Shown here in pieces: positions 5,524 to 48,422 of a DNA stretch of 64,000 nt (its first letter is position 1; every line of letters starts with the position of its first letter). The notes beneath the pieces were generated by a model. The model searched no databases. It was given only the letters and a program-made list of their open reading frames with translations, and had not been told where the DNA came from. Source of the DNA: Enterococcus phage vB_OCPT_CCS1; the sequence record ON113170.1. One strand, written 5' to 3'. Made by a program: the position numbers and the translations under genes.

Positions 5524-6042
5524 CTACTCTCCGCTTAAAAAGTCTATGTCCATTCGAACTCTACTAAGAGCTTTACCTAATAAGTTTAGCCCCTGCCATT
5601 GTTCTGGGTAGTTAATACGTAGGTCATTCTCTTTTAGTCCAACACCCCAAATTCTATCGTAAGGGCTAGCTTCAACAAATACTGTATCCTTCGGAAAGCT
5701 TAGCAGGAAGTCCAATAGCTCCTTATTCTGTGTAAACTTATAAAAATTTCCGTAGTAAACAATGCGTTCTCTAACAAGTTGCCATTCAGACTCATCGAAG
5801 TTCTTCACTTGTCTTCCTAATGCCTTTGCTTCTTTAGGTGTAGCAACTTGTAGTATCTTACTCCCTGTATCAAAATCACCAAAATAAATAGCTTTGTTAT
5901 ACATCATAAAATGTTCGCATGTAGGAAAAGATATGGTACCTTCTAAGGCGGTGAATGATGCGGGATACCATTGTGATAAACACTCTTTTCCTATTTTGTT
6001 TGGATTTTTAGCAATATGTCCCCAAAAAGGCACAATAGCCAT
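5524..6042 (-). CDS. NADAR (YbiA-like) domain protein
   Basis: C-terminal VFVEASPYDRIWGVGL matches the NADAR family LvEasp.D.iWGiG signature; upstream EHFMMYNKA...F segment also fits. Confidence 0.7.
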   Translation of the reverse strand: MAIVPFWGHIAKNPNKIGKECLSQWYPASFTALEGTISFPTCEHFMMYNKAIYFGDFDTGSKILQVATPKEAKALGRQVKNFDESEWQLVRERIVYYGNFYKFTQNKELLDFLLSFPKDTVFVEASPYDRIWGVGLKENDLRINYPEQWQGLNLLGKALSRVRMDIDFLSGE

Positions 6043-6828: not shown

Positions 6829-6978
6829 TCTTGTATACCTCCAATAAAATTACAGTACCAATAAACAAAATATGTCCTAAGATATAAATTCCTACAATAC
6901 TCAAAGTAACAAGTACAGGGTGGTTAGCAAACCCACCCCATACATTGTAAAAAATGTCGAGCATCTGTTTGACCTTCG

Positions 6979-8223
6979 CTATTTAGCCTTAAAATTGTAA
7001 ACAGGCTTAACAATCTTTTGAATATCTACTGTATCTTTGATGATTTCTTTGATTTCGTCAGCATTCTTGTAGGCTTTTGGTGCTTCATCTAGTGTACTTT
7101 GAACAACAGATGTTGTATAGATACCAGACATTGTTTGTTTAAATTCGTCTAAATCGAGCAGTTCTTTTGCTTTAGAACGAGACAATACACGTCCTGCTCC
7201 ATGGGGTGCAGAATTATTCCAATCAGTGTTTCCTTTTCCTACACCGATGATAGAGCCCTCTTTCATATTTAAAGGGATAACGAGTCTAACACCTTCCTGT
7301 GCATCTGTGGCACCTTTACGAATAGTGTTGGAATCTACATCAATATAATTATGAATAGAATCAAATAAGTCAACTACAGTCCAACCCATGTTAGAAACAA
7401 TCTTATCAATGATAGTTTTACGATTCATGTAAGCATAACGTTGTGCTAGTTGCATATCGTTTAAATAATCATCCACTGCGGAACCTTCTAAGTATGGCAA
7501 TTGTGGTTTAACATTGACAGCTTTAAAATTCTTAATAGCCTCTTGAATTTCTGACTGTCTGCCTTCTTGCTTAAGTGTCTCAATCATAGTTGCTAAACCT
7601 TTGTCATCACGTTCATGGTATAAATCCGCTTTCTTCTGGTGATATTGGGCTACTTTAAGTCCTAAAGAGCGGGAACCTGTGTGAACTAACAAGTAGTAAT
7701 TGTTTTCGTCATCTTTACTTAATTCGATAAAATGGTTTCCACCACCTAAAGTACCTAAAGACAAGGTAACACGTTCAATAAATGGTTCTTCTGTTGCACC
7801 TTTAAACGTCATAGATTCTAACATGTGCTTAATCGTATTCGGTACATTAGGATGAAGTTCGTCCAAATTTTCTCTAATGTTAAACCCAGAAGGAACCACT
7901 TTGTTAATCACTGCATCCAATTTAGCCCATTCGGTATCTGTCGTGTCTTCTGGCTTTTCAATTTGAGCTACCATAATACCACAACCTACATCTACGCCAA
8001 CAATAGAGGGTACAACTCGATTAATACCGTCTGGATAATGAATCGTTGTACCAACTGTGGAACCTTTACCATAATGTGCATCTGGCATAATTCTAACAAT
8101 GCCACCTTCTGTTACTGGTTCATTAATCATTGTTGTAACCTGACCGATAGTGCCTTCATCCACCGTGTTAATAAACATTTTCGCATCGGTATACTTACCG
8201 TTAAGTTCAATTAAGTTATTCAT
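6979..8223 (-). CDS. rtcB: RtcB-family RNA 3'-phosphate/5'-OH ligase
   Basis: 414 aa; TLGGGNHFIELS matches the conserved RtcB GGNHF metal-binding motif; length and the HYGKG/HTGSRSLG segments are consistent with RtcB. Confidence 0.85.
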   Translation of the reverse strand: MNNLIELNGKYTDAKMFINTVDEGTIGQVTTMINEPVTEGGIVRIMPDAHYGKGSTVGTTIHYPDGINRVVPSIVGVDVGCGIMVAQIEKPEDTTDTEWAKLDAVINKVVPSGFNIRENLDELHPNVPNTIKHMLESMTFKGATEEPFIERVTLSLGTLGGGNHFIELSKDDENNYYLLVHTGSRSLGLKVAQYHQKKADLYHERDDKGLATMIETLKQEGRQSEIQEAIKNFKAVNVKPQLPYLEGSAVDDYLNDMQLAQRYAYMNRKTIIDKIVSNMGWTVVDLFDSIHNYIDVDSNTIRKGATDAQEGVRLVIPLNMKEGSIIGVGKGNTDWNNSAPHGAGRVLSRSKAKELLDLDEFKQTMSGIYTTSVVQSTLDEAPKAYKNADEIKEIIKDTVDIQKIVKPVYNFKAK

Positions 8224-8404
8224 CAGTTTTCTCCCCCACTAATACTTTCTTCATCTTTTCATCTAGTCTCTGTATAATCTCTTGTTGTTCCTGAGCTAGC
8301 TTTGCATGGTGTTCACGCTGTTTTTTATACTTAGCATAAGCAAATAGTTCTTCTGTAGTTAGTTCTTCCAACTTACGTGTAAATGGTGTAGCCTCAAATT
8401 CCAT
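8216..8404 (-). CDS. hypothetical protein
   Basis: ORF track 62 aa; overlaps rtcB start. Confidence 0.45.
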   Translation of the reverse strand: MEFEATPFTRKLEELTTEELFAYAKYKKQREHHAKLAQEQQEIIQRLDEKMKKVLVGEKTDE

Positions 8405-8492
8405 TACAAGTACCTCCTTGTTTTCTATACTTAAAGTATATCCTGTAAGATAAAAAGAAGCAAGCAGTTTTTACACTACTTGCTATATTTTT

Positions 8493-10768: not shown

Positions 10769-11079
10769 TTTTTCTTTCCTCCTGTTTTATCCTTATCCAG
10801 ACCCCATATATGTGCCCATTTACGACAAAAGTGTTTATCATAATCTAAGTTCATACCGGTAGCACCTTCGAAGTCTTTAAACTCTTCATAAAATTCCGAT
10901 TCTTTAAACCCATCCCACTTTTTCAATTCAACCATCCTATACATAAGTTGGTCAAATTGATAATCTGGTATTATAATTGCATCTAATTCATAATACAGAT
11001 AACTGTGTAGTAGTAAAGCACGCTCTGTCATGTTAATAAAAGACAAGTTATCTAGTATAGTATTATTTACAACAGTCAC
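10765..11079 (-). CDS. hypothetical protein
   Basis: ORF track 104 aa. Confidence 0.5.
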   Translation of the reverse strand: MTVVNNTILDNLSFINMTERALLLHSYLYYELDAIIIPDYQFDQLMYRMVELKKWDGFKESEFYEEFKDFEGATGMNLDYDKHFCRKWAHIWGLDKDKTGGKKK

Positions 11080-12498: not shown

Positions 12499-12625
12499 CC
12501 TCCTCTACGTTATCTGAGCTATAGATTCCAGAGTGATATAAATCATCCTCGTCTTTCATAGTTTCTTCACAAAATGGACAAGTGGGGTATAATTCCTTCT
12601 CTTCTATAATAAACCCTTTATACAT
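12395..12625 (-). CDS. small zinc-ribbon protein
   Basis: ORF track 76 aa; CPFCEE...CPSCNKVF. Confidence 0.4.
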   Translation of the reverse strand: MYKGFIIEEKELYPTCPFCEETMKDEDDLYHSGIYSSDNVEEGAIWETTCPSCNKVFYVRTQVHYSYETFKDEDHI

Positions 12626-36286: not shown

Positions 36287-37822
36287 TTATTTAAGTGCTT
36301 CTTTTACAAAGTCGTATTCTGGTTTATTTAACACAGACAACATCATTTCTTCTGGGGAAGTAACTTCTCCACCTAGTACTTGCGATAAAATATTTGTGGA
36401 GAATCCAGAAACTAACGCAACATTATCTTCGTTAAACCGTACTGGTAGATTATCATGACGAGATTGTACATTCCAGAAAATAATAGCAGGTAACTCGTAG
36501 CCATGATTTGCAAACTCCTGTTTTGCTTGCTCAAAGTTTGTTCTTTGTCCTCGTTCACAAGCAGTATTAAATTCCATATCACTGATAATAATAATCTTGG
36601 ATGGTAGTTCTTCTTGCGGTGTGTTATGCTTAACCGCAGTATCAAGAATCAATCGGAACACTGCTTGAATATTAGTAGAATAGCCAACTCTTGCACGGTT
36701 ATATACTCTCATACGGTCATACACAGTATCCTGTGGATTCAAATATACTAAACTAGGTTCTGATGCAAATGTAATGAAGTGATTAGCGAAAGTACCGTTT
36801 AATTTTTCAGCCGTGTATAATGCCAAACCTTGCGCAACATCCCAAGGGTAAACCCCGTTCGTTTCTGTCCAAGTCATTGAACTAGAAGAATCAGCAACTA
36901 CAATTGCGTTATCTTCCACATCCTTAATAACATCATCTAAAGACTGCCAAGTAGCTTCTAAAGAACGATTTACACCCTGACCTGCACGTGCTTTACGGTA
37001 TGCTCCTGTAATCTCGTGAGGTAATACCAAACTTGCATTAAGCTTTCCTTCACCCGACTCCACCTTTTCCATAAGCGCTTCATATTCATCTGGCATGTGT
37101 AATTGCAAAGCTTTACGGTATTTGAATAATGCTTTAGAGGATACTTGGTTCAAATCAATCTTATGGTATTCCTTGCTTGCTAACCGAACTTCAATTACAT
37201 TTAAGTAATCACGTAATTTAGCAATCATTTTACGATAACGAGTTAGACCTGCTTTGCCTTCAAAACCTAAATAGTTAGCAATACGAGCACCTTGATTACG
37301 TTTCTTACTATTTGGAGAACTTACATTAGCTAACCATTTACCTAGTAATGAAACAGGTTTACCCTCTGACATATTTTTAATATCTGATGTTAGTTGGTTC
37401 CCGATGATACGTGCACCTTCTGTATCCACAAAGTGGATACTACGTTTGTGTGCGTATTCCATAGTTTCAAATAAGTCTGTCCAACGACCAACATATGCCA
37501 TGTACTCCATTAAAGTAACGATTACTTGCTTGTTTTGGTTACGACCATCCACTAAGTATTTGATTGCTTCTAGGTAAGCGGAACGTTCACCCAATCCACC
37601 TAAACGGATATTACGTAAGTGTACCAAATTGCGTAATGCTAACTCTGGGTTTTCAGCATAAGCTTTAGAAAACATGTTTCGTACATCTTCTAAACGACCA
37701 CGCATAGCCCCTGCTTGTGCAAAGAAGTCTAAGTTAGCGTTTAAAGTTGATGTGTAAGTTTTAGCTCCATTTTCTGTATGTCCAACAGTTGTTTCTTCTT
37801 TTAGGTTGTCTAAAAATGACAT
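36287..37822 (-). CDS. rsr: Ro60/Rsr-like protein: helical TROVE-like N-terminal region + C-terminal vWA domain (also consistent with phage DUF2828-type annotation)
   Basis: 511 aa; ~310-aa helical N-terminal part; C-terminal vWA with MIDAS VVADSSSSMTW (DxSxS) and downstream IIISDMEF; architecture and size match Ro60; promoter 37864-37892 and RBS AAAGGAGAGATG. Confidence 0.55.
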   Translation of the reverse strand: MSFLDNLKEETTVGHTENGAKTYTSTLNANLDFFAQAGAMRGRLEDVRNMFSKAYAENPELALRNLVHLRNIRLGGLGERSAYLEAIKYLVDGRNQNKQVIVTLMEYMAYVGRWTDLFETMEYAHKRSIHFVDTEGARIIGNQLTSDIKNMSEGKPVSLLGKWLANVSSPNSKKRNQGARIANYLGFEGKAGLTRYRKMIAKLRDYLNVIEVRLASKEYHKIDLNQVSSKALFKYRKALQLHMPDEYEALMEKVESGEGKLNASLVLPHEITGAYRKARAGQGVNRSLEATWQSLDDVIKDVEDNAIVVADSSSSMTWTETNGVYPWDVAQGLALYTAEKLNGTFANHFITFASEPSLVYLNPQDTVYDRMRVYNRARVGYSTNIQAVFRLILDTAVKHNTPQEELPSKIIIISDMEFNTACERGQRTNFEQAKQEFANHGYELPAIIFWNVQSRHDNLPVRFNEDNVALVSGFSTNILSQVLGGEVTSPEEMMLSVLNKPEYDFVKEALK

Positions 37823-37892: not shown

Positions 37893-38060
37893 CGCCTTTT
37901 ATAAATAAAAAACCCATCCATTTAAGAATGAGTTTTTTCATCTTAACCAGTAGTTAAGCGGGGGGGGCGCAACACCTTTTATTTAACTTGTCATTATAAT
38001 ATCAAGAACCACAGGCTTAATAATTAGATTTGAAAGGTTTAGTCTATTAGTAGTTGATTG

Positions 38061-38140
38061 CTGTAGGGTTCTTTATGCTCTGGCAACCTAGTAGGTTAGA
38101 GCTATGGCAAATTGCCAAAACCTTTTTATTATGTACAAGA
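38061..38140. repeat. structured ~80-nt repeat, copy 1 (two hairpins supported by compensatory changes)
   Basis: GCTCT-[AACCT-agt-AGGTT]-AGAGC then TGGCA-aat-TGCCA then AAAACCTTTTTAT. Confidence 0.5.
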
Positions 38141-38156
38141 ATCTATTTTATACGTT

Positions 38157-38213
38157 GCTCTAACCAAACTGAGCTACGGGAGGATGATTCCTCCCGGCAG
38201 GACTCGAACCTGC
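38157..38213 (-). ncRNA. tRNA-mimic module 1 (T arm + closed acceptor hairpin + D arm; no anticodon arm): YrlA-like Y-RNA candidate
   Basis: on the minus strand: GCAGG-TTCGAGT-CCTGC (T arm), CGGGAGG-aatcat-CCTCCCG (7-bp hairpin where acceptor strands would pair), TA, GCTCAGTTTGGTTAGAGC (canonical D arm). Confidence 0.5.
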
Positions 38214-38244
38214 GACCCACGGCTCCATAGGCAATAAAAATCGC

Positions 38245-38325
38245 TGTTAGATTCTTTATGTTCCGGCACCCATTAAGGATGGAACTATAGCTATGCTAAA
38301 ACCGTTTTATTTATGTAACAAGAAC
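38245..38325. repeat. structured ~80-nt repeat, copy 2
   Basis: GTTCC-[CCAT-taagg-ATGG]-GGAAC then TAGC-tat-GCTA then AAAACCGTTTTAT; stems covary with copies 1 and 3. Confidence 0.5.
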
Positions 38326-38338
38326 GCATTAACTTTAA

Positions 38339-38390
38339 GCTTTACCAATTAAGCTATACCACCAATGGTGGCAGTTGGATTCGAACCAAC
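38339..38390 (-). ncRNA. tRNA-mimic module 2 (same permuted architecture)
   Basis: GTTGG-TTCGAAT-CCAAC (T arm), TGCCACC-att-GGTGGTA (hairpin), TA, GCTTAATTGGTAAAGC (D arm). Confidence 0.5.
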
Positions 38391-38427
38391 AACTCACATT
38401 TTTCAGATGTATTAGTTTTAAAAATTT

Positions 38428-38510
38428 GCTGTGGCGTTCTTTATGTTCCGGCTACCTGTTAGGTTGGAACTATGACATATGTCAAAACCTTTTTATCTTG
38501 TCTTTATAAT
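38428..38510. repeat. structured ~80-nt repeat, copy 3
   Basis: GTTCC-[ACCT-gtt-AGGT]-GGAAC then TGACA-ta-TGTCA then AAAACCTTTTTAT. Confidence 0.5.
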
Positions 38511-38895: not shown

Positions 38896-39091
38896 GTATA
38901 AGTATGTATATATCAATACAATGTACAAGAACTTTTAGTGAGGTAGCTCTCATAGTGTATTAATGGGGTACATTGTGTAACTTCAACTAGTATTGCCTCA
39001 CACGTGACTAGTCTTATATACACAATGCCTACATACAACCCGATAGACCACCCTTGGTACGCATATTAAGAGGCGCAGGGTGGTACGAATA

Positions 39092-39162
39092 TATGGATTG
39101 CAGGATTTGAACCCGCACCTTTTTGACGGAAGCCAAAAATACTACCCTTATATTAAATCCAC
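39092..39162 (-). tRNA. tRNA-Gly(UCC)
   Basis: T arm GCGGG-TTCAAAT-CCTGC; acceptor 6/7 + G-U; anticodon loop CTTCCGT; AT-rich D arm. Confidence 0.5.
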
Positions 39163-39282
39163 ATAGTGTTAATAGGCGGGTACCCGACAGCGAAGTATCA
39201 TTCCTGTCTTGTCATTCTCCTATTAACTCCATAATACCTTGCCTAGAGTTGAGCTAGGTCTCACATTTATCGAAGGTACTAA

Positions 39283-39355
39283 TCGGGAAAGCAGGACTTG
39301 AACCTGCGACCCCACGCTCCCAAAGCGTGTGCGCTACCAACTGCGCTATTTCCCG
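39283..39355 (-). tRNA. tRNA-Pro(UGG)
   Basis: acceptor CGGGAAA/TTTCCCG exact; D arm GCGCAGTTGGTAGCGC; anticodon stem CACGC/GCGTG with loop TTTGGGA; T arm GCAGG-TTCAAGT-CCTGC. Confidence 0.8.
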
Positions 39356-39432
39356 TTAACTTATACATACATTATAACACAAACTTACATGCTGTAAACA
39401 ACTATTTGTAAGTTTTTTTAATTTATCCATTC

Positions 39433-39510
39433 GGGACAGTGTGCTTTAACCATTCAGCCACCCGCAGGGGCAACCCGCAGGACGGGAATCGAACCCGTAT
39501 AACACTGTCC
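39433..39510 (-). ncRNA. tRNA-mimic module 3, closed by a 9-bp stem at the anticodon-stem position: YrlA-like Y-RNA candidate
   Basis: GGACAGTGT-tat-ACGGG-TTCGATT-CCCGT (T arm)-CCTGCGGG-ttgcc-CCTGCGGG (8-bp self-complementary hairpin with two G-U)-tg-GCTGAATGGTTAAAGC (D arm)-ACACTGTCC; the terminal 9-bp stem GGACAGTGT/ACACTGTCC encloses the whole unit. Confidence 0.55.
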
Positions 39511-39675
39511 TATTGGATAGGCTTGTGTACCTGTCATCTTCCGATTACACACACCTAGTCTAGTTACCGTACCAATAGATTTGACAGGAATCTAGGGTAA
39601 CGCCCAATATGGTGTTAATTCACCTCGTATTCTGTTACAGGTTTGCAACCCTGAACAAGGATGACCAATCCTAAT

Positions 39676-39743
39676 GATATGCGAGGGGATTTGAACCCCT
39701 ATCTACTTCATAGGTCACTTTATCCACTTAAGCTACGCATACC
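39676..39743 (-). tRNA. irregular tRNA-like element (short; possible pseudogene)
   Basis: canonical T arm AGGGG-TTCAAAT-CCCCT and 7-bp acceptor (one G-U); only ~16 nt between D arm and T arm, so no standard anticodon arm fits. Confidence 0.3.
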
Positions 39744-39799
39744 TATTTAATTTCTAGCTAGGTAACTAAATTCACTGCACCTTGCGCAGAGTACAGCTA

Positions 39800-39872
39800 T
39801 GGAGCATAGCGGACTTGAACCGCTGACATCTACCTTGCAAGGGTAGCGCTCTCCCAACTGAGCTAATGCCCC
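39800..39872 (-). tRNA. tRNA-Ala(UGC)
   Basis: acceptor GGGGCAU with G3:U70 wobble (Ala identity); D arm GCTCAGTTGGGAGAGC; anticodon loop CTTGCAA; T arm AGCGG-TTCAAGT-CCGCT. Confidence 0.85.
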
Positions 39873-39877
39873 GAAAA

Positions 39878-39950
39878 CACCTCCGCTGAGATTTGAACTC
39901 AGAATGCGGGATTAGAAATCCTGTGGTTTATCCAATTAGCCTACGGAGAT
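39878..39950 (-). tRNA. tRNA-Arg(UCU)
   Basis: T arm CTGAG-TTCAAAT-CTCAG; anticodon stem CAGGA/TCCCG with loop TTTCTAA; acceptor 7 bp with one G-U. Confidence 0.7.
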
Positions 39951-39954
39951 ATAC

Positions 39955-40119
39955 TTACTTAAACGGAAGATAAATTGTTTGACCAATTCTAATTTTATTA
40001 GGGTCTTTAATATTCCTATTCTGACCATGTAACCAAATTAGTCTCCATAACCAAGGCTTGCCATAATATTTTCTAGCAATAGAATACAATGTGTCACCTT
40101 TTTTAACTGTGTATTTCAT
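39955..40119 (-). CDS. small LysM-domain protein (54 aa)
   Basis: MKYTVKKGDTLYSIARKYYG...IGQTIYLP is a LysM consensus; RBS AGGGGG; below ORF-track cutoff. Confidence 0.45.
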   Translation of the reverse strand: MKYTVKKGDTLYSIARKYYGKPWLWRLIWLHGQNRNIKDPNKIRIGQTIYLPFK

Positions 40120-40148
40120 AACAATTACCCCCTAATTTATAAATATGG

Positions 40149-40517
40149 CTATATATAGGATACTCCTGTAAACAATTCAATTGCTTCAATTTCAGTATGG
40201 AAGTTTTCCCATTCTAAACATTCATAGAAATCTTGTAAGATATGCTTGTCTTTCCTGTAAACAGTCTCACCTTTATGGGCTTTCTCACAGATTTCTCTAA
40301 CAGCATCCACATTATATTTACCACCAGTTTTATACTGTTCTAAACCAGAATCTAGTAAAACTCGTTGTACTTCTTCACTCTTATCTCCTGCTTTCCAAGA
40401 GTCAAAAGCTTTATCATACAATGTATCTTCCATGTTTTCACCTTCTACTTCCATGATTGATTGAATAAATCTTTGCCACTTAGAAGGCTCTTTGTGTTTA
40501 CCTTTACGAAAACTCAT
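40149..40517 (-). CDS. hypothetical protein
   Basis: ORF track 122 aa; RBS GGAGG upstream. Confidence 0.5.
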   Translation of the reverse strand: MSFRKGKHKEPSKWQRFIQSIMEVEGENMEDTLYDKAFDSWKAGDKSEEVQRVLLDSGLEQYKTGGKYNVDAVREICEKAHKGETVYRKDKHILQDFYECLEWENFHTEIEAIELFTGVSYI

Positions 40518-40543
40518 TATTAGCCTCCATTATCTTTAATGAA

Positions 40544-40630
40544 CCGAGGAGGAGGGACTCGAACCCCCAAACGCTTTTACACGTCTACATGATTTCAAAT
40601 CACGCTGAATACCAGTTATGATACTCCCCG
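40544..40630 (-). tRNA. tRNA-Ser(UGA), type II
   Basis: 87 nt; acceptor CGGGGAG pairs CTCCTCG with G-U; anticodon loop TTTGAAA; long variable arm; T arm GGGGG-TTCGAGT-CCCTC. Confidence 0.65.
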
Positions 40631-40741
40631 AAAAAGAAACTGATTGACTAGTACTGTTAGTTGACTAGTCAACCGGAACTACTTAAACCGAACTCTTTAA
40701 ACAGCTTTAGTAGTTATTATTTAGGTTTTTAAATAAACAAC

Positions 40742-41002
40742 TTACCAAAACCAAACTAGATTTAATGCTAGTCGTTTACTAATAATAGGTGATTTTCTAT
40801 GTCTAACCGATTTAAACTTACGTACATTCCCCTTATATGGTGTAAAGTCAATCTTACAAGGTTCAACATAATTAAATTTACGGTTAGCTCGTTTAATTAC
40901 TGCTTGCTTTTGTTTAGAAGCTTTAATTTCTTTTTCAAATGCTTCTTTTTCAATGTTGTTAGCTATGGTTGCTAAATGTTCAGTCATAAAGCTCATGTCC
41001 AT
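40742..41002 (-). CDS. hypothetical basic protein
   Basis: ORF track 86 aa between two tRNA-Ser genes; RBS AGGAGAGATG. Confidence 0.4.
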   Translation of the reverse strand: MDMSFMTEHLATIANNIEKEAFEKEIKASKQKQAVIKRANRKFNYVEPCKIDFTPYKGNVRKFKSVRHRKSPIISKRLALNLVWFW

Positions 41003-41019
41003 CTCTCCTTACACGTTCT

Positions 41020-41106
41020 ATGGAAGGCATGGGATTCGAACCCACACATGCTGTTACACATCTACTTGGTTTCCAACCAAGCCTCTTTACCGTTTGAGTA
41101 ACCTTC
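41020..41106 (-). tRNA. tRNA-Ser(GGA), type II
   Basis: 87 nt; acceptor GGAAGGT/GCCTTCC; D stem CTC/GAG 3 bp; anticodon stem CTTGG/CCAAG with loop TTGGAAA; long variable arm; T arm GTGGG-TTCGAAT-CCCAT. Confidence 0.75.
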
Positions 41107-41202
41107 CGTCTTGGGAGCAGGCGGGTTTGTGTCAAGTACACAATACCTAATCTTCTGTGCATGTTGTTCCCTAGGCTTTATGCACACCCTACTATCTGCA
41201 TA

Positions 41203-41388
41203 CTAACAGACCTGCCAATTTTCTAACACTTTTTCTAATGCTTCGTATGGACACATTACTGTCTTACCGTGAACACCATGTATTCTCAAAATAATATAAT
41301 GTTCATTTATCTCAGAGGTAACAAAGTATATCTTGTCTTTCACTAAACCTAAACTTCCGTTTAAACCAATGAATTTTAAATACATCAT
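41203..41388 (-). CDS. hypothetical protein
   Basis: ORF track 61 aa; RBS AAGGAGGT. Confidence 0.4.
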   Translation of the reverse strand: MMYLKFIGLNGSLGLVKDKIYFVTSEINEHYIILRIHGVHGKTVMCPYEALEKVLENWQVC

Positions 41389-42132
41389 GTTACCTCCTTA
41401 TTATGTATAACCCATGAAGCATCATGGGGGGACTGTAGTATGCCCAACCTGCGGGGATGCTCCGCTCTGAATCCGTAGAAATCAGCCACAATTCGATATT
41501 TATTTAATGAAAAAATTAGATAGGATTCGACTGCTTGACAAAGGCAGTCTATGGAGTAGACGGGACTCGAACCCGTGTCCTAACGTAGAACCATACAAAA
41601 TTCTACGGGCGTAGTTACTAGTTTTAATCTACGTTAAGGTTACAACTAATAACTGAAATTACCTTAACTGAGTGGTAAAGCCTCTCCTGAGTTATCCACT
41701 TTTACCTCAGCGTTGTCGGTTGATGAGTCCTCTAGGTAGAACCGACCCTAGTCTAGAGGGGTAAGTGTGTAGCTAGTCTAAAACTAGGCTACAGCTAATA
41801 ATTCTTCGTTTTTAGCAGTTATATTTACTGCGATGATTAAGTCATCACTCTGCCCGCTATTCATATACTCCTTACGCCAGTCGAAACCAAAACTACCCCA
41901 ACATAAGAATTTCTTTTGACTAACCCTACCCTTCCGGCAGGGTCTAATCAAAAGTATACAATTAAAAAAATGAAAATGAGTTACGGAAAATGTAACGTCT
42001 CCACCACCGGACTATAAGGGTAAGTTGTTCCGGTCTTTAACCTAAGTACTTTACTTAAATCTAACAGGACAGCCTTCATTACGTAAACTACTTAACCATG
42101 TAAAACGTAAAGGTCAATTTCCGTTGACCTAA

Positions 42133-42206
42133 TGCAAGAGGGGGGATTCGAACCCCCACTGAATAGATTCTAAGTCTACTTCCTCTGCCAGTTGGGATAC
42201 TCTCGC
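42133..42206 (-). tRNA. tRNA with anticodon UAG (Leu by anticodon; short variable arm, atypical D arm)
   Basis: perfect T arm GGGGG-TTCGAAT-CCCCC; acceptor 7 bp with one G-U; anticodon hairpin GTAGA-CTTAGAA-TCTAT. Confidence 0.5.
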
Positions 42207-42291
42207 ATAATAACAGCCCTACCCAACCGCTGTTCTGCTAGCATATAGCTTGCAGGCTTTTTATCTGTGTTATAAAAACCAGAAAGGCTAT

Positions 42292-42375
42292 ACGGGTAAC
42301 AGGAGTCGAACCTGCATGTCACAAGGGACAATGGATTTTAAGTCCACAGCGTATACCAGTTCCGCCATACCCGCA
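42292..42375 (-). tRNA. tRNA-Leu(UAA), type II
   Basis: 84 nt; acceptor GCGGGTA/TACCCGT (G-U); anticodon loop CTTAAAA; variable hairpin TGTC-ACAAGG-GACA; T arm GCAGG-TTCGACT-CCTGT. Confidence 0.75.
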
Positions 42376-42552
42376 TAATCACTTTTTAAACTAGATTATT
42401 TATGATTTCCCACTTCTGAAAAAAATACCACTTTATATATCAACATTTTTCTTATGAATGGGTTAAGATATGTTTTAACGAAAAAGAGGCTAAAAGAGTA
42501 TTTCCTCAAAATTTTTTGTCAAGTTAATCTAGTAAGGAAAAGTGTAACCTTA

Positions 42553-42624
42553 TGTGACTGCTCAGAATCGAACTGAGATTCATGTTTCCACAGAACACTG
42601 CCTTACCGTTAGGCTACAGTCACC
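42553..42624 (-). tRNA. tRNA-His(GUG)
   Basis: acceptor GTGACTG/CAGTCAC exact with an extra encoded 5' G (G-1, His hallmark); anticodon loop CTGTGGA; T arm CTCAG-TTCGATT-CTGAG. Confidence 0.8.
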
Positions 42625-42647
42625 ATCATGTGTTCCTTACAAGAATT

Positions 42648-42676
42648 ACTATACAGCATCTTGTAAGGAAAGTCAA
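42648..42676 (-). promoter_or_regulatory. promoter (gtgTTGACTT-N17-TATAGT) preceding tRNA-His
   Basis: motif match; drives the tRNA sub-cluster. Confidence 0.5.
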
Positions 42677-42695
42677 CACTTAAATGTAATTTTAT

Positions 42696-42917
42696 TTAAA
42701 AAAGTTTTGATGAATCTAATTGAGAGAAACTTTCAGGTAGAGAACCTAGTTCTTCCATATACTCTTGGTCAATCTCATAAACAGATAACTCGGTTACTTC
42801 GTTTTCAATAGTAAGTTTCATTGCTTCTGCTGTTTGTATACTGTGTCCTTCTATTTGAAGTTTATCATCAAGATAAATACCTTCCCAGTCTTCTGCAACT
42901 ACATAGTCTGCTTTCAA
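42696..42917 (-). CDS. hypothetical acidic protein
   Basis: ORF track 73 aa. Confidence 0.4.
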   Translation of the reverse strand: MKADYVVAEDWEGIYLDDKLQIEGHSIQTAEAMKLTIENEVTELSVYEIDQEYMEELGSLPESFSQLDSSKLF

Positions 42918-42925
42918 GATATTAC

Positions 42926-43177
42926 CTACTTTCTTCTCAATTTCTGATAAAAATTATTATTCTTGTAATCATCCTCGTGGGCATAGAATTTTTTCATGTC
43001 ATATGTCCAACAAGTTTCTTCTACTCGTTTATGATGTGTCAATGTTACTTCGTCATCAAAACAACCTTGATTTAATTTATGCCTGTAATTTCTATTAACC
43101 ATTCTTTTTATATCTCGAACAGTTGAATCTTTCATACAAACATAACGGTAATAGGGTTTTCTGTAACTTCTACTCAT
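42926..43177 (-). CDS. hypothetical basic protein
   Basis: ORF track 83 aa; RBS AGGAGGACTTAC. Confidence 0.4.
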   Translation of the reverse strand: MSRSYRKPYYRYVCMKDSTVRDIKRMVNRNYRHKLNQGCFDDEVTLTHHKRVEETCWTYDMKKFYAHEDDYKNNNFYQKLRRK

Positions 43178-43331
43178 TGTAAGTCCTCCTTAATAGATAC
43201 TTACAATTTAGACAATACTTTCTTCACAGGAACCACTCCTTATTAATAAAAGCTACCTCCCGAAAAACGTTTCTTCACCAAAGTGTAAGACGTAAACTAA
43301 CGACAGGTCATAGTTTTCCAATTAAGGCAAA

Positions 43332-43405
43332 TACCAGTGAGAGGATTTGAACCTCTGACACCCGCCTTATCAAGACGATGCTCTAACCAACTGAGCTACA
43401 CTGGT
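43332..43405 (-). tRNA. tRNA-Ile(GAU)
   Basis: acceptor ACCAGTG/CACTGGT exact; D arm GCTCAGTTGGTTAGAGC; anticodon loop TTGATAA; T arm AGAGG-TTCAAAT-CCTCT. Confidence 0.8.
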
Positions 43406-43558
43406 GTGACCCATGTGTCAGGACTTTCACCTGTTCTCGGGGTGCCCCGCCTCTCTACTAATCTCCTCATTCGGTGCCCCTACTAGAGTGACTAGAGATA
43501 GTTAGCAATAAAAATTATATATCATGAATCAAATTTTTACTGCATCCTATATACACGA

Positions 43559-43630
43559 TACCGTCTACAGGATTTGAACCTGTGACATCCACCTTGTAAG
43601 GGTGACGTTCTCCCACTGAACTAAGACGGT
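43559..43630 (-). tRNA. tRNA-Val(UAC)
   Basis: acceptor ACCGTCT/AGACGGT exact; D arm GTTCAGTGGGAGAAC; anticodon loop CTTACAA; T arm ACAGG-TTCAAAT-CCTGT. Confidence 0.75.
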
Positions 43631-43759
43631 GAAATATGGAACCCTACCAGAGGATTTCTTTCGGTATTACAGTCACCTCGGCATGAACAAAGCCAGATAT
43701 TGAGGTCTGGACTTCTCACGCCCCGGGAGTCGAACCCAGTATAGACAAACCATATTTTA

Positions 43760-43854
43760 TACGGAAGACAGGATTCGAACCTGCGATATAGGAGTTTTAG
43801 TGCACTTATTGTCTCCACGGTATCCGTTGCGTATGCCCTACACGCCACTTCCGT
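43760..43854 (-). tRNA. long (95 nt) tRNA-like element, unassigned
   Basis: canonical T arm GCAGG-TTCGAAT-CCTGT with exact 7-bp acceptor ACGGAAG/CTTCCGT; D-arm-like GCGTGTAGGGCATACGC; ~44 nt between D and T arms (long variable arm or insertion); anticodon not resolved. Confidence 0.35.
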
Positions 43855-43861
43855 ATGTTAA

Positions 43862-43934
43862 CCGACAGTAAAGGAATCGAACCTCTATCACTAGATTCGT
43901 AGTCTAGTATCCTATCCAATTGAACGAACTGTCG
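43862..43934 (-). tRNA. tRNA-Arg(ACG)
   Basis: acceptor CGACAGT/ACTGTCG exact; anticodon stem CTAGA/TCTAG with loop CTACGAA; T arm AGAGG-TTCGATT-CCTTT. Confidence 0.75.
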
Positions 43935-44027
43935 CTCTAGGCTAGCAATTACGCAGACTGACTATGGGCACCTTCGTCCCGTCCCCTGTAAGTGCCCTCC
44001 TACAGGTTGTCCGTGGCACCGCAATGT

Positions 44028-44101
44028 ACTAACCGATGTCCCCACAGGGATTTGAACCCCGAACCTCCCGATTAAAAGTCGGGTGCTCTAGCCGATTGAG
44101 C
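44028..44101 (-). tRNA. tRNA-Lys(UUU)
   Basis: D arm GCTCAATCGGCTAGAGC; anticodon stem CCCGA/TCGGG with loop CTTTTAA; T arm CGGGG-TTCAAAT-CCCTG; acceptor 7 bp with two G-U. Confidence 0.8.
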
Positions 44102-44167
44102 TATGAAGACAGTTGTGTTTTTCAAGATAACCCTCTCGAAAAACCGTTACTAATAGAAAAACTAAGG

Positions 44168-44241
44168 GTCTCGACTGACAGATTTGAACTGCCTGCTCCT
44201 CCTAAGAGGCGTGTTACCAAAGCCATACACCAACTCTTCGA
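44168..44241 (-). tRNA. degenerate tRNA-like element (possible pseudogene)
   Basis: good T arm GGCAG-TTCAAAT-CTGTC but the acceptor pairs only 5/7 and no convincing D or anticodon arm. Confidence 0.25.
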
Positions 44242-44243
44242 GA

Positions 44244-44317
44244 ATATCCCCTACAGGATTCGAACCTGTGACCCCCTGATTAAGAGTCAGGTGCTACCAC
44301 CAACTGAGCTAAGGAGA
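44244..44317 (-). tRNA. tRNA-Lys(CUU)
   Basis: T arm ACAGG-TTCGAAT-CCTGT exact; D arm GCTCAGTTGGTGGTAGC; anticodon stem CCTGA/TCAGG with loop CTCTTAA; acceptor with one G-U. Confidence 0.6.
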
Positions 44318-44330
44318 TAAGATTACCAAT

Positions 44331-44406
44331 AGCTAGTTAAGCCTTACGGAATCGAACCGCCATGAGGTTATGAAGCTCACATAGACCACTAGACACAAAA
44401 CTAGCT
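44331..44406 (-). tRNA. noncanonical tRNA-like element (7-nt insertion between T arm and acceptor)
   Basis: perfect 7-bp terminal stem AGCTAGT/ACTAGCT and T-arm-like GGCGG-TTCGATT-CCGTA, but 7 extra nt (AAGGCTT) separate the T arm from the 3' acceptor strand; D arm weak. Confidence 0.3.
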
Positions 44407-44501
44407 TATTGATAAAATTCTATATAGATAATTGTATGCAATGTTCGCACTAACTAACCAGATAACTAGCCAATCATTCAAAACATTAATTTGTGAGTTT
44501 C

Positions 44502-44573
44502 CGCTCACAATGCTGATTGAGAGAATCGAACTCCCATTCCCGGGTTACAAAGCCGGAGTAATAGCCGTTATAC
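44502..44573 (-). tRNA. tRNA-Thr(UGU)
   Basis: acceptor GCTGATT/AATCAGC exact; anticodon stem CCGG/CCGG with loop TTTGTAA; T arm GGGAG-TTCGATT-CTCTC. Confidence 0.7.
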
Positions 44574-44607
44574 TAAATCAGCGTAACCCCTCAATAGAGG
44601 GGAATTA

Positions 44608-45699
44608 TTATACTAGGTTACCATACCCGTAGGTATTTGTTTGAGCTTGTTTAAACATGATGCTCTTGATAGTTAAGTCGTTGTACTTTTCATCGTCTTC
44701 ATCATCAAGGTACACATCAACGTTAACGTTCTTACCGGAAATACCGATTGTTTCGTCTTTACCAACTGTTAAGTCTTTACTGTTGAATGATACATCAAAG
44801 TAGATGCTATCTTCTTTTGTACGACTACCGAACGAAACTCTGTCACCGAATAAATCTAAGCTTCGAGAGTTGATTACAACAGGTTGTAACCCACCTTCGA
44901 ATTGAATAGTTACTGTGTAATATTGATTTTCAATATTAAGGATGTTTAAGTCAGCAATAGCTTCACCAAATGGGATACCAAAGTTTAATTCCAACGCAAT
45001 AGCTCGTAAGCAGTCATAATTTAACTTAATTCTACGGCTAAACTTAACAACACTGTCAATTTCACCATAGTAAGCTTCGTCTAACTTATCTTGCAAGTAA
45101 GTACGAATTTCATCTGCATCAGGATATTCGAAACGTAAATGGTAATGAAAACGTCCCGGACGGTTAAGCATAAAGTCATTTACACGATTTAAGCTATTAA
45201 CAGTAAGAGCGTAGATACGTTTACGTTGTGATAAACCATCGAATAAGCTCAATAGTTTTTCTTGTGGTTCACGACCGTCACGGTCATTGAATACTTTTTC
45301 AAACTCATCGAACAGGATAAGAGACTCTTGGTCAATACTGTCAATAAATTCTGCAATCCCCGGATAAGCTTCTGTAATTAAGATAACAGGCATACCCTCT
45401 TCAATAGCTCGTTGAGATAAGATTTGAGTAAATAGTGATTTACCAATCCCTTTGTCTCCACTTAAAATGATTCCTAAGCTACGATTAATTGTTTTAAATG
45501 TGTGTAGCACTTTTTCAATTTTAGCTAAACGGTCACCGTAAACTTTAGGTTCTTTCAAATCAAAATCGTCTGTTACTACTAGCGAGAACCCTGACATTTG
45601 ATTGAACCGAACTTTATAAGTTTGCGCAGGTAACTTATCATAAGTTTTAAGGTCGTTTGCATAAATTTCATAGTTACTACCATAGTTGATTACTTTCAT
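44608..45699 (-). CDS. AAA+ ATPase
   Basis: Walker A SGDKGIGKS, Walker B LILFDEFE, sensor/Arg-finger region NRPGRFHYHLRF; start moved to MKVINYG (RBS AAGGGG) because the longer ORF-track start overlaps tRNA-Phe. Confidence 0.7.
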   Translation of the reverse strand: MKVINYGSNYEIYANDLKTYDKLPAQTYKVRFNQMSGFSLVVTDDFDLKEPKVYGDRLAKIEKVLHTFKTINRSLGIILSGDKGIGKSLFTQILSQRAIEEGMPVILITEAYPGIAEFIDSIDQESLILFDEFEKVFNDRDGREPQEKLLSLFDGLSQRKRIYALTVNSLNRVNDFMLNRPGRFHYHLRFEYPDADEIRTYLQDKLDEAYYGEIDSVVKFSRRIKLNYDCLRAIALELNFGIPFGEAIADLNILNIENQYYTVTIQFEGGLQPVVINSRSLDLFGDRVSFGSRTKEDSIYFDVSFNSKDLTVGKDETIGISGKNVNVDVYLDDEDDEKYNDLTIKSIMFKQAQTNTYGYGNLV

Positions 45700-45738
45700 A
45701 AATATTCCCCTTATTCGTGTTTTACTAGCATTTGCTAA

Positions 45739-45812
45739 TGGAGAGGGGTGGAATTGAACCACCGACCCCTAGGGTTTCAATCTAGTGCTCTAACCTACTG
45801 AGCTACCTCTCC
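45739..45812 (-). tRNA. tRNA-Phe(GAA)
   Basis: acceptor GGAGAGG/CCTCTCC exact; D arm GCTCAGTAGGTTAGAGC; anticodon loop TTGAAAC; T arm GGTGG-TTCAATT-CCACC. Confidence 0.75.
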
Positions 45813-45943
45813 GTGTCAATTTGGACTTATCCCCCACGTGGTTACTAAGATAAGTCCTATGCCTTTGAAGTGTGGATACTCAAAAATGAGTACAGGTACT
45901 AAAAATCTGATGACAAGTCAGATTTATATCATAAGCAGAAGGT

Positions 45944-46015
45944 GAGATTCGAACTCACATTCAGGGGTTTGCAATCCCTAGCCTTAACCACTTGGCTACT
46001 TCCGCAATATCAAAA
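45944..46015 (-). tRNA. tRNA-Cys(GCA)
   Basis: D arm GCCAAGTGGTTAAGGC; anticodon stem AGGGA/TCCCT with loop TTGCAAA; T arm GTGAG-TTCGAAT-CTCAC. Confidence 0.8.
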
Positions 46016-46027
46016 TACACGCTGTGA

Positions 46028-46099
46028 AGGATTCGAACCCCCGTCTTCCGGGTTGGAGCCGGAAATGATAGCCACTACACCAACAGCGCAAGATTCGGA
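46028..46099 (-). tRNA. tRNA-Trp(CCA)
   Basis: anticodon stem TCCGG/CCGGA with loop CTCCAAC; T arm GGGGG-TTCGAAT-CCTTC; acceptor with terminal G-U. Confidence 0.75.
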
Positions 46100-46226
46100 G
46101 GGGAGGGACTAGCAACCCTCCGAAAGATGTAAGATAATGAGAGATTAAAACATACCACTATTAAAAGTGGAATAGGTAATTAAGGATTCGAACCTTACAA
46201 GCCCTTACTGCTTACCTTGTAAACTT

Positions 46227-46255
46227 ATAGTATCATGTGTTGTACCGAAAGTCAA
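46227..46255 (-). promoter_or_regulatory. promoter (gtgTTGACTT-N17-TACTAT) preceding tRNA-Trp/Cys/Phe
   Basis: motif match. Confidence 0.45.
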
Positions 46256-46300
46256 CACTTTTTATAAAAATAATAGGGAGAAATATTTCTCCCTAAAAAA

Positions 46301-46373
46301 TGGACTACTTGGGAATCGAACCCAAACCTGTCAGTTATGAGCTGACGGCTCTGACCTACTGAGCTAATAGTCC
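46301..46373 (-). tRNA. tRNA-Met(CAU), elongator-type (could be the lysidine Ile2 tRNA)
   Basis: D arm GCTCAGTAGGTCAGAGC; anticodon stem GTCAG/CTGAC with loop CTCATAA; T arm TTGGG-TTCGATT-CCCAA; no initiator features (no C1:A72, no GGG/CCC anticodon stem). Confidence 0.8.
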
Positions 46374-46580
46374 GTGTAATAATACCACGAAATAAACCTT
46401 AGTAAGTCATACAGTCCCAGAAAGGGAGGCATATGATACTAGTGTTGAGTGCCATAATCGTTTAATAAATGTGACTGAGAGAGTAATAAATTTCTTAGGC
46501 ATGTCCATATGCCTCCTTTCCAATAATGATAGTTTTAAGATATAAACAGAATAAATAAAAGAGAAAATAATAATGAATAA

Positions 46581-46652
46581 TAGCGCATGAGAGAGTCGAA
46601 CTCTCGATTCCGGTTCGAAAGACCGGTGTCTTGACCGCTTGACCAATGCGCC
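46581..46652 (-). tRNA. tRNA-Glu(UUC)
   Basis: D arm GTCAAGCGGTCAAGAC; anticodon stem CCGGT/ACCGG with loop CTTTCGA; T arm GAGAG-TTCGACT-CTCTC. Confidence 0.8.
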
Positions 46653-46657
46653 ATAAA

Positions 46658-46732
46658 CGAGCTATATGGGACTTGAACCCATGACCTTCTCCGTGACAGG
46701 GAGACGAGCACTCCTGACTGCTCCAATAGCCC
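46658..46732 (-). tRNA. tRNA-Asp(GUC)
   Basis: anticodon stem TCTCC/GGAGA with loop CTGTCAC; D stem GAGC/GCTC; T arm ATGGG-TTCAAGT-CCCAT. Confidence 0.8.
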
Positions 46733-47986
46733 AATGTTTCCCCAACCACCGCCACCTAGGGGATTCGTACGTCTACGTGAGTTTTTTGGTTATAGTTCCT
46801 TGTTTAAGACAAGGAAGTACGAGTGGACTACCAATTTACCACTCTGCGGTTCTGATTGCGGTAGGTGGGATATGTAAGATAAAAAGACCACTCTTAGAAT
46901 GATTTAATCTGTAAAAAACACATCGCATAAACGAGATGCAGTTATAGCTCTATCAAGCAACCTACACCGATTCCGTCGATTACTACCGACATCGCCTTGC
47001 TCGTGTACTTTGAGCGCCCATTTCCAACCCTCGGTTGCTAATGTTTCTCTCCTAACCTACACCTGAGAGTGGCACACGTCTGTGCTAGTATTTTATGCCT
47101 ATTAACTGATTCGCAGGCACACTGCTTAATTCAGCCAACCAATCGGCATCCGATAAGATTGATTGTTTCCGTAGGTTCTTTAAGTCACTGGAGTGGTACT
47201 GCCCCACTCACGCCTATTAAAGTGTTAACTTAATAGATAAAAACTACTCATAACAGGTTTACTACCATAGCATTCTCTACTTCCGCCACAGTGACATGTT
47301 TAAAAACTCAAAACTTAATAGATTAAGGGCTTTTCTTCCTGCTTCATATACACTCACTGCATTCGGTCACATACTCAGAGAGGCTGAACCATCGGGAGCT
47401 ACCCGATAGCTTCTCTCTGCCTTTAATGTATGGTCTAGCACGGTGGCTAACAACGTTCACCTAAACATTCAGCTATTAAAAGTATTAATTAACATATATC
47501 CTTATGTCTTCTATAATATTTTCATCAAAAGCTGACTTAGGCTACTTGTACCAAGGTCTCTTGTTAAACCTGTATTTCTACAGTTCTCGTCAAAGGGAGT
47601 CTTTTGAGTTTTCCAAGGTCTGCCAAGCTTCTCACACTTCCACCTAACTTGGATTCTTTTCCACAGGAACGTCTATTGTATCCCCCAAGAGTCTTGTACC
47701 TTACAATCCATGTATACTCCACATAACGCTTAACTGATATTAGCTTTTACTAATAGTTACTCCTATGTTACCATAAGACCTACCTGCAACCCAAAGCACT
47801 ATCGCACCTTCGGTTACATTCAGATTCACGCCACGCTATCCTAGCAAGCTGTTCAAACTTTCTGCACTAGGTTCAAAATCTATTAAGTTTTCAATTTTTA
47901 ACCACTAACTTGTGGTGTAATACTAATATAGCATAACATTACAAAGTTGTAAACACCTTTTTGTAAGTTTTTTTGATTTTTTTTTG

Positions 47987-48074
47987 ATGGAAGGTAAGGG
48001 GGTCGAACCCTTACACCGGATTTCTCCGACCTAACTGATTAGCAATCAGCCCTATTACCATTTGAGTAACCTTC
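47987..48074 (-). tRNA. tRNA-Ser(GCU), type II
   Basis: 88 nt; acceptor GGAAGGT/ACCTTCC exact; anticodon loop TTGCTAA; variable hairpin; T arm AAGGG-TTCGACC-CCCTT. Confidence 0.75.
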
Positions 48075-48075
48075 C

Positions 48076-48112
48076 AAAAACAAAAAGGGAACCCCTGTAA
48101 TTAAACAGGGGT
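48076..48112 (-). terminator. minus-strand terminator between tRNA-Gln and tRNA-Ser
   Basis: minus strand ACCCCTGT-ttaatt-ACAGGGGT followed by TCCCTTTTTGTTTTT. Confidence 0.6.
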
Positions 48113-48184
48113 AAGAGAGATGTCTCTAAAAGCCTACAACCATTATAACATAGAAACATAGTTTGTACAGCCGTAACTGTACAA

Positions 48185-48256
48185 CTGTCAGGACAGGGTT
48201 CGAACCTGTATCGTAACTTCCAAAGAGTTATGTCCTACCTATTAGACGACCTGACA
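48185..48256 (-). tRNA. tRNA-Gln(UUG)
   Basis: acceptor TGTCAGG/CCTGACA exact; D arm GTCTAATAGGTAGGAC; anticodon stem TAACT/AGTTA with loop CTTTGGA; T arm ACAGG-TTCGAAC-CCTGT. Confidence 0.8.
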
Positions 48257-48347
48257 AAAGGTGGAACCTCCCTAAATTTGGGGAAGAGGGAGGTTATCAT
48301 GCTATTAACAAACACGAATCTGCTAACCAAGTAATCTTGACTAGCAA

Positions 48348-48418
48348 CTCACCTAGCAGGACTTGAACCTACAAGAACTGGTTAACAGCCAGTCATGATA
48401 CCGTTTCATCATAGGTGA
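48348..48418 (-). tRNA. tRNA-Asn(GUU)
   Basis: acceptor TCACCTA/TAGGTGA exact; anticodon stem ACTGG/CCAGT with loop CTGTTAA; T arm GTAGG-TTCAAGT-CCTGC. Confidence 0.8.
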
Positions 48419-48422
48419 ATTT

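Follow-up and report, generated by a model that had tools for sequence, protein, structure and literature searches.

A phage-encoded RtcB-family RNA ligase in a variable slot of Enterococcus Schiekvirus genomes: identity, genomic context and a candidate role in counter-defence

This analysis concerns a single gene on a stretch of 64,000 nucleotides from Enterococcus phage vB_OCPT_CCS1 (sequence record ON113170.1), referred to here as the window, which an earlier note, made from the letters of the sequence, had assigned to the RtcB family of RNA ligases. The open reading frame (ORF) was recovered at exactly 6979..8223 and lies on the minus strand, which the earlier note had not stated; it starts with an ATG at 8223, ends with a TAG stop codon and encodes 414 amino acids. 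The protein is almost certainly an RtcB-family 3'-phosphate/5'-OH RNA ligase. With moderate confidence, we further propose that it acts as an accessory counter-defence or RNA-maintenance enzyme of this Enterococcus phage of the genus Schiekvirus, a role to which the genomic context and the literature point.

The assignment to the family is borne out by the sequence profile, the predicted fold and the conserved catalytic residues. A search with the Pfam profile RtcB (PF01139), which had been suggested as a check, scored 202 bits (cut-off 27; E=2.3e-59) and covered profile positions 15-425 of 426, while the 414-residue protein matched PHROG 1075, labelled 'tRNA splicing ligase', with E=1.2e-137. 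Both phmmer and a profile of 31 sequences reached the RtcB structures from Pyrococcus horikoshii, Thermus and human. The AlphaFold2 model, built on the alignment of 31 homologues, had a mean predicted local distance difference test score (pLDDT) of 92.2 and a predicted template modelling (TM) score of 0.89, and in the comparison of this model with the PDB by Foldseek all 16 significant matches were RtcB proteins (E=1e-25 to 2e-16; query-normalised TM 0.58-0.71), including those from human, Pyrococcus and Thermus, with the next match at E=0.03.

At the level of the curated subfamilies, all NCBIfam RtcB models score below their cut-offs, among them PRK09588 for the E. coli-type RtcB equivalog (106.8 bits, cut-off 407) and TIGR03073 for the PrfH-associated RtcB (85.3 bits, cut-off 271.8), so that an assignment to any of these subfamilies was rejected and the protein is best described as a member of the family that is no equivalog of a characterised subfamily. 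Release-factor families, to which the PrfH partner would belong, were not reported by Pfam among the 62 ORFs of the window; for the second Pfam scan, this and the negative results below refer to the best 25 of 32 matched families, the other seven apparently being the weakest.

The active site could be placed on the gene by alignment with P. horikoshii RtcB. The segment D78-V-G-C81 (7981..7992, minus strand) corresponds in the HMMER alignment to 1uc2/4dwq to D95 and C98, which are Mn ligands, and is invariant. The GGGNHF motif, on which the original assignment had been based, is present at residues 160-165 (7729..7746, minus strand), where N163 and H164 correspond to N202 and H203, the latter a Mn ligand. 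The codons of H181 (7681..7683, minus strand) and of H291-N292 (7348..7353, minus strand) align with the Mn ligand H234 and with H329-N330 (Mn ligand), respectively, the second pair in the profile-to-PDB alignment. H341 (7201..7203, minus strand) lies in the sequence SAPHGAGR, aligned to STCHGAGR, and corresponds to H404, the histidine that becomes guanylylated. Y385 aligns with Y451 of P. horikoshii, a position that we take to be involved in guanine contact. In the alignment of the 31 homologues, which share 48-71% identity with the query, D48, H50, D78, C81, N163, H164, H181, H291, N292, H341, R345, Y385 and K406 are all invariant. The catalytic His, Cys and Asn ligands are thus retained without exception, and GTP/Mn2+-dependent joining of 3'-phosphate or 2',3'-cyclic phosphate ends to 5'-OH ends is the predicted activity. 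The RtcB proteins of E. coli, P. horikoshii and human have the same fold and active-site residues, and their three-step GTP/Mn2+-dependent sealing is presumed to be the same, although the window protein is only about 20% identical to the RtcBs with solved structures.

According to megablast, the window is closest to the Enterococcus phages phiSHEF16 and 163 of the genus Schiekvirus (Herelleviridae, Brockvirinae). RtcB proteins with 95-99.8% identity were found in 22 Enterococcus phage records, representing 19 distinct phages, and nearly all of these records are labelled RtcB, tRNA-splicing ligase or RNA-2',3'-PO4:RNA-5'-OH ligase. The sibling genes of phiSHEF16, EfV12-phi1, EFDG1, vB_EfaM_A2 and others are the same gene at the same locus, with essentially no difference. 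The nearest relatives outside Enterococcus phages are found in phages of Listeria (50% identity), Bacillus (45-48%) and Clostridium (43%); within the Herelleviridae, the RtcBs of the Listeria phages A511, P100 and AG20 and of the Bacillus Bastillevirinae, also of PHROG 1075, share 44-50% identity and fall into the same length class (~395-435 amino acids). The nearest cellular relatives are 'RtcB family' proteins of Firmicutes with about 50% identity and unknown role. In total, RtcB homologues occur in 695 phage records, including 221 from Mycobacterium, 63 from Bacillus and 58 from Listeria phages, with haloarchaeal viruses and others among the remainder. The gene call itself adds nothing new, since near-identical phages already carry this annotation and RtcB is known as a class of phage proteins. 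A repair function for phage RtcB on tRNAs cut by metal-independent host RNases has likewise been proposed before (PMC7824862; PMC13313380), and the literature searched contained nothing on RtcB of Enterococcus phages.

The comparison of sibling phages shows how this gene behaves in the genus. Relative to the orthologues of A2 and EfV12-phi1, rtcB has 30-36 synonymous and only 4 non-synonymous differences, corresponding to a synonymous divergence (dS) of 0.12-0.15 and a ratio of non-synonymous to synonymous divergence (dN/dS) of about 0.03; purifying selection on the retained gene is strong. It is kept in the 19 phages mentioned and missing in 8 siblings with the same flanks. In three of these, 21C1, Porthos and EfsSzw-1, BLAST of the loci against the window revealed that the interval 6868..8169 is deleted: homology extends to 8170 and resumes at 6867, with 8 nucleotides common at the junction. 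The product is a fusion of the first 18 rtcB codons to the tail of a downstream ORF of 47 amino acids. These phages once had the gene and lost it. The identical 1.3-kb deletion occurs in all three, which differ in the divergence of their flanks. In phage 113, unrelated small ORFs replace rtcB almost exactly at the gene boundaries (6974 and 8232), and in phiSHEF13 a larger segment is replaced; the replacement ORFs of both phages had no informative Pfam match. Among near-identical phages, the position of rtcB stands out as a hot-spot of variation.

From these deletions and replacements it follows that some hosts, at least, allow the phage to propagate without rtcB. Taken together with the selection on the retained copies, this makes rtcB an accessory gene that occupies a variable slot and is constrained yet can be dispensed with, and it is plausible that this behaviour is that expected of a host-specific counter-defence gene.

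The substrates of RtcB arise only from nucleases that leave a 3'-phosphate or 2',3'-cyclic phosphate together with a 5'-OH, as do PrrC, RloC, MazF/RelE and HEPN enzymes. VapC/PIN- and TOPRIM-type tRNases depend on a metal and as a rule produce 3'-OH and 5'-phosphate ends, which makes VapC, one of the nucleases named in the earlier note, doubtful as a target. During infection, the phage enzyme would re-seal tRNAs, and possibly rRNA, tmRNA and mRNA, that have been cut by metal-independent ribonucleases of the host, the candidates being PrrC/RloC-type anticodon nucleases, HEPN-type RNases of abortive infection and toxins of the MazF/RelE type. Following the chemistry of the family and judging from the conserved residues, RtcB would use GTP and Mn2+ to guanylylate its own H341, open a 2',3'-cyclic phosphate, if present, to give a 3'-phosphate and pass the GMP on to the RNA 3'-phosphate, after which attack by the 5'-OH of the other fragment would restore a normal 3'-5' phosphodiester bond. 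The enzyme probably complements other RNA-protection assets of the same gene block, namely 24 tRNAs, a tmRNA, a Ro60-like protein and Y-RNA-like RNAs. Among the homologues of this Ro-like protein, Bas63 gp130 of a FelixO1-like phage reportedly counters the Ppl defence (bioRxiv 10.1101/2024.10.10.617714).

A functional parallel is the repair by Pnkp and Rnl1 of phage T4, which shares the proposed logic that the phage mends RNA cut by a suicide RNase of the host (PrrC, acting on tRNA-Lys). However, the enzymes and their chemistry are unrelated: in T4, healing by a kinase/phosphatase is followed by an ATP-dependent ligase, whereas RtcB joins the raw ends directly. RtcB would therefore be a single-step equivalent of Pnkp plus Rnl1, apparently without archease or RtcA. 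Homologues of T4 Pnkp and Rnl were not found in the window phage, either by Pfam or by tblastn with a ligase of PF09414. More broadly, archease, RtcA, RtcR, polynucleotide kinase and ATP-dependent RNA ligase were neither reported by Pfam for the 62 window ORFs nor annotated anywhere in the RefSeq genome of EfV12-phi1. When the PF09414 ligase of the Listeria phage, AG2_042 and AG2_048 served as tblastn queries, no homologue turned up in the window or in positions 1-150,000 of EfV12-phi1. The earlier statement that no archease lies nearby therefore holds for the window and can be extended to the annotation of a complete relative. RtcB is the sole RNA ligase detected in this phage, which, in contrast to the characterised RtcBs, shows no RtcA, RtcR or archease partner.

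The RNA-related part of the context lies far upstream of rtcB in the same leftward block. An array of 24 tRNA genes was identified with ARAGORN at 39091..48419 (minus strand), with Rfam matches at gathering level. Inside it are a tmRNA at 41549-41899 (minus strand; Rfam 142.7 bits, full length) and a ROOL RNA at 47309-47895 (minus strand; Rfam RF03087, 267.8 bits, full length). The tag peptide of the tmRNA is, according to ARAGORN, AKNEELLAVA. All 24 tRNAs are contiguous, intron-free and match the full tRNA model, and the tmRNA is encoded in one piece. The tRNA array, the tmRNA and the ROOL RNA are possible clients of RtcB.

Downstream of the array, at 36287..37822 on the minus strand, a protein of 511 amino acids is encoded that matches Pfam DUF2828 and DUF7788 and combines a helical ring with a vWA domain. 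It belongs to a family with 706 phage records, whose members are labelled 'RNA-binding protein' (PHROG 850) or 'Ro-like' (mycobacteriophage annotators). Its metal ion-dependent adhesion site is invariant (D311, S313, S315, T383 and D415). In the search with its AlphaFold2 model (pLDDT 90.7), the 11 best PDB matches by fold are without exception Ro60/TROVE proteins, matched over the full length, and include the Ro60 of Thermus phage phiLo. Phmmer and a profile of 36 sequences gave only weak vWA matches and did not connect the protein with solved Ro60 structures, so that the link to Ro60 comes from the comparison of folds alone.

The Ro-like ORF lies immediately downstream of RNAs resembling YrlA and about 28 kb upstream of rtcB on the same strand. 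Tandem Y-RNA-like units occupy 38058..38494 (minus strand), in which three copies of a 69-nucleotide element alternate with YrlA-like modules at 38126-38241 and 38312-38419, and a third YrlA-like match is located at 39420-39520 (minus strand; Rfam RF02553). With 47.1, 34.3 and 30.1 bits, the RF02553 matches all fall short of the gathering score (69). Their layout is the permuted T-arm/hairpin/D-arm one, and they recur in syntenic position in EfV12-phi1. A further weak tRNA-like match (27.7 bits) is found at 38816-38893. The 69-nucleotide element repeats with a period of about 184 nucleotides. When the units are folded to minimum energy, a helix forms between the 3' part of the element and the 3' tail of the tRNA-like module that follows, and in this helix the copies differ by compensatory changes (GAACGC/GCGUUC versus GAAUCUA/UAGAUUC). 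This suggests a predicted Y-like unit of about 185 nucleotides.

The earlier reminder that bacterial rtcB is linked to rsr and Y RNAs thus proved apt, since a gene for a Ro60-fold protein and sub-threshold YrlA-like RNAs share the strand of rtcB, some 28 kb upstream of it. As in the rsr-yrlBA-rtcBA operon of Salmonella, the same three kinds of components are found in one genome: a Ro60 fold, tRNA-like Y RNAs and RtcB. The differences are considerable, however. The parts are about 28 kb apart in the window and apparently do not form one operon, neither RtcA nor RtcR was found, the Ro-like protein belongs to DUF2828/DUF7788 and not to Pfam TROVE, and the Y-like RNAs stay below the Rfam threshold and carry the additional 69-nucleotide element at their 5' side.

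A more compact version of this arrangement exists in Listeria phage AG20 (Pecentumvirus), where the tRNA array, a ROOL-like RNA, the Ro-like gene, a helix-turn-helix (HTH) gene, a small ORF, an HD-like gene, a further small ORF and RtcB follow each other on one strand, with two small ORFs, a NADAR gene and two further genes leading up to an ATP-type RNA ligase. The distance from the Ro-like gene to the ligase is about 6.5 kb, the whole block including the tRNA array measures about 10 kb, and about 1.2 kb lie between the Ro-like gene and rtcB. The ROOL-like match (90.1 bits, just below the gathering score) adjoins the tRNA array at 12194-12745 (minus strand) of the AG20 locus, and no YrlA-like RNAs were found beside the AG20 Ro-like gene at E<=0.1. 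Order and strand are kept between the window and AG20, with identities of 43% for the Ro-like protein, 42% for the HTH protein, 50% for RtcB and 46% for the NADAR protein. The last of these is encoded in the window at 5524..6042 (minus strand; Pfam PF08719, E=1.7e-47), about 0.9 kb downstream of rtcB, and its counterpart in AG20 is AG2_044, two genes downstream of rtcB. Whereas the Listeria phages have these genes packed into about 10 kb, together with a PF09414 ATP-dependent RNA ligase and an HD-like protein, neither of which was found in the window phage, about 28 kb of genes for nucleotide metabolism and NAD salvage separate the HTH gene from rtcB in the window. The proximity of rtcB and the NADAR gene is common to the window and AG20, but it is not seen in the Bacillus and Clostridium phages checked, and in the Bacillus phages CAM003 and f2b1 and the Clostridium phage phiCD211 rtcB stands solitary among small unknown ORFs.

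Between rtcB and the Ro-like gene of the window, the block at about 16300-31100 (minus strand) contains three metallophosphoesterases and a domain of the Rv2179c-like 3'-5' exoribonuclease type (18515-19045), as well as two PnuC-like transporters of nicotinamide mononucleotide and a cytidylyltransferase-like/AAA_28 (NadR-like) protein; the transporters and the NadR-like protein suggest an NAD+ salvage by the phage. Closer to rtcB, an ORF of 104 amino acids at 10765-11079 (minus strand) stands alone and matches only the N-terminal, NAD+-binding Ia domain of NAD-dependent DNA ligase (Pfam Nlig-Ia, E=5e-20); it has no adenylation domain.

The immediate surroundings of rtcB are made up of small ORFs. 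Upstream lies an ORF of 62 amino acids (8216..8404, minus strand; PHROG 23831, function unknown), whose stop and the rtcB start share an overlap of 8 nucleotides, and a Shine-Dalgarno-like GGGGGAG, read from the sequence at 8231..8237 (minus strand), is placed 7 nucleotides 5' of the ATG. Just 5' of this pair of genes, a consensus match identifies a terminator-like hairpin with a 10-bp stem and a T-rich tail (8459..8484, minus strand), possibly a sign that a separate sub-operon begins here. A promoter scan around rtcB was uninformative, as the count of sigma-70-like sites equalled the expectation from shuffled sequence. The small ORFs flanking rtcB on both sides have no detectable similarity across the Enterococcus, Listeria, Bacillus, f2b1 and C. 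difficile phages, and a conserved small partner ORF for RtcB was therefore rejected.

Several points weigh against a role of RtcB in counter-defence and RNA maintenance. The literature searched yielded no experiment in which an RtcB of any phage was shown to act against a defence system. The 8 siblings without rtcB were isolated and propagated, so that the benefit must be host-specific. The sub-cut-off NCBIfam scores mean that the substrate preference of E. coli RtcB cannot be transferred to the phage protein. The gap of about 28 kb in the window, together with the solitary position of rtcB in other phages, implies that the linkage to the RNA-related genes may be inherited synteny and not a functional tie. 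Finally, several recently described defences that target tRNA, namely retron PtuAB, Septu and PARIS, use metal-dependent nucleases that leave 3'-OH/5'-phosphate ends, which RtcB cannot join.

The same genes allow a second explanation, in which RtcB is the sealing arm of a quality control exerted by a phage ribonucleoprotein (RNP) of the Ro60-like protein and the Y-like RNAs: the RNP would spot damaged or misfolded RNAs, RtcB would mend their broken backbones, and the clients would mainly be the tRNAs, the tmRNA and the structured RNAs of the phage. It overlaps with the counter-defence role, the difference being that the Ro-like/Y-RNA partnership becomes indispensable. In its favour are the Ro60 fold found for the 511-residue protein, the adjoining YrlA-like RNAs with their conservation in EfV12-phi1 and the gene order with RtcB shared with AG20, and the Salmonella rsr-yrlBA-rtcBA operon provides a precedent (PMC7790460, PMC4201824). 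However, the two genes are not co-inherited and have been lost independently in Schiekvirus: 8 phages have the Ro-like gene without rtcB, and EFP01 (KY549443.1 / NC_047796.1) is the reverse case, with rtcB kept and an apparent remnant at about 114015-114221, where 14% of the Ro-like gene still matches at the DNA level. In addition, the phages with Ro-like homologues include FelixO1-like, Vibrio and Campylobacter ones, which are not among the leading genera in the RtcB search, many phages with RtcB have no Ro-like gene within 9 kb, and the YrlA matches remain below the Rfam gathering score. We therefore regard this explanation as unlikely.

A broader form of this idea would join the tRNA array, the Y-RNA-like RNAs, the Ro60-like protein, the HTH regulator, RtcB and NADAR into a single RNA-maintenance module passed on by inheritance within the Herelleviridae, in which a Ro-like/Y-RNA particle would recognise damaged tRNAs, tmRNA and rRNA of phage or host and RtcB would re-seal them; the Y-like RNAs would then represent a new architecture consisting of the 69-nucleotide 5' element and a tRNA-like module with a covarying closing helix. 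This proposal is speculative, and we would not expect it to prove correct as a whole.

The remaining explanations fare considerably worse. RtcB could act on DNA, sealing or GMP-capping breaks of the phage genome in which host nucleases have left 3'-phosphate/5'-OH ends. Work of the Shuman laboratory reportedly found in vitro activity of E. coli RtcB on DNA ends of this kind, the active site of the phage protein is the same as in RtcBs reported with such a side activity, and the block holds genes of DNA and nucleotide metabolism as well as the stand-alone LigA Ia domain. There is no specific signal for this in the context, though; the established cellular substrates of the family are RNAs, and the conserved neighbours in the Listeria phages are RNA-related (tRNAs, the Ro-like gene and the RNA ligase), so that a role on DNA appears very improbable. 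Slightly less probable still is a function in the maturation of phage RNAs, either in splicing intron-containing or split tRNAs or in joining or circularising the tRNA-like and Y-like units. RtcB is indeed the tRNA-splicing ligase of archaea and animals, and the phage is rich in tRNA-like genes. Yet the 24 tRNAs have no introns, the tmRNA is a standard one-piece gene, neither a tRNA-splicing endonuclease nor an archease was reported in the Pfam scans of the window ORFs, and the siblings without rtcB are viable, those inspected still carrying the neighbouring Ro-like gene; the earlier suggestion that RtcB processes the tRNA-like units found no support for the same reasons of intron-free tRNAs and an undivided tmRNA. 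That rtcB is a decaying or neutral passenger without current function, as its loss or replacement in 8 siblings might suggest, is hardly credible in view of the intact frame, the complete set of catalytic residues and the dN/dS of about 0.03 at 12-15% synonymous divergence.

What this analysis adds to the known annotation are the natural deletion and replacement variants and the co-occurrence of a Ro60-fold protein with Y-RNA-like RNAs, a tmRNA and a ROOL RNA. With phiSHEF16 and 163 as natural carriers of rtcB and 21C1, Porthos and EfsSzw-1 as siblings in which it is deleted, the counter-defence hypothesis becomes directly testable. Since such phages are candidates for therapy against E. faecium and E. 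faecalis, accessory genes that widen the host range are also of some applied interest. The wider RNA kit of the phage, comprising the Ro60-like protein, the Y-like RNAs, the tmRNA, the ROOL RNA and the 24 tRNAs, is of more interest than rtcB itself, and if these components did form one RNA-maintenance module, the private translation kit of the phage would be kept working under attack by host RNases.

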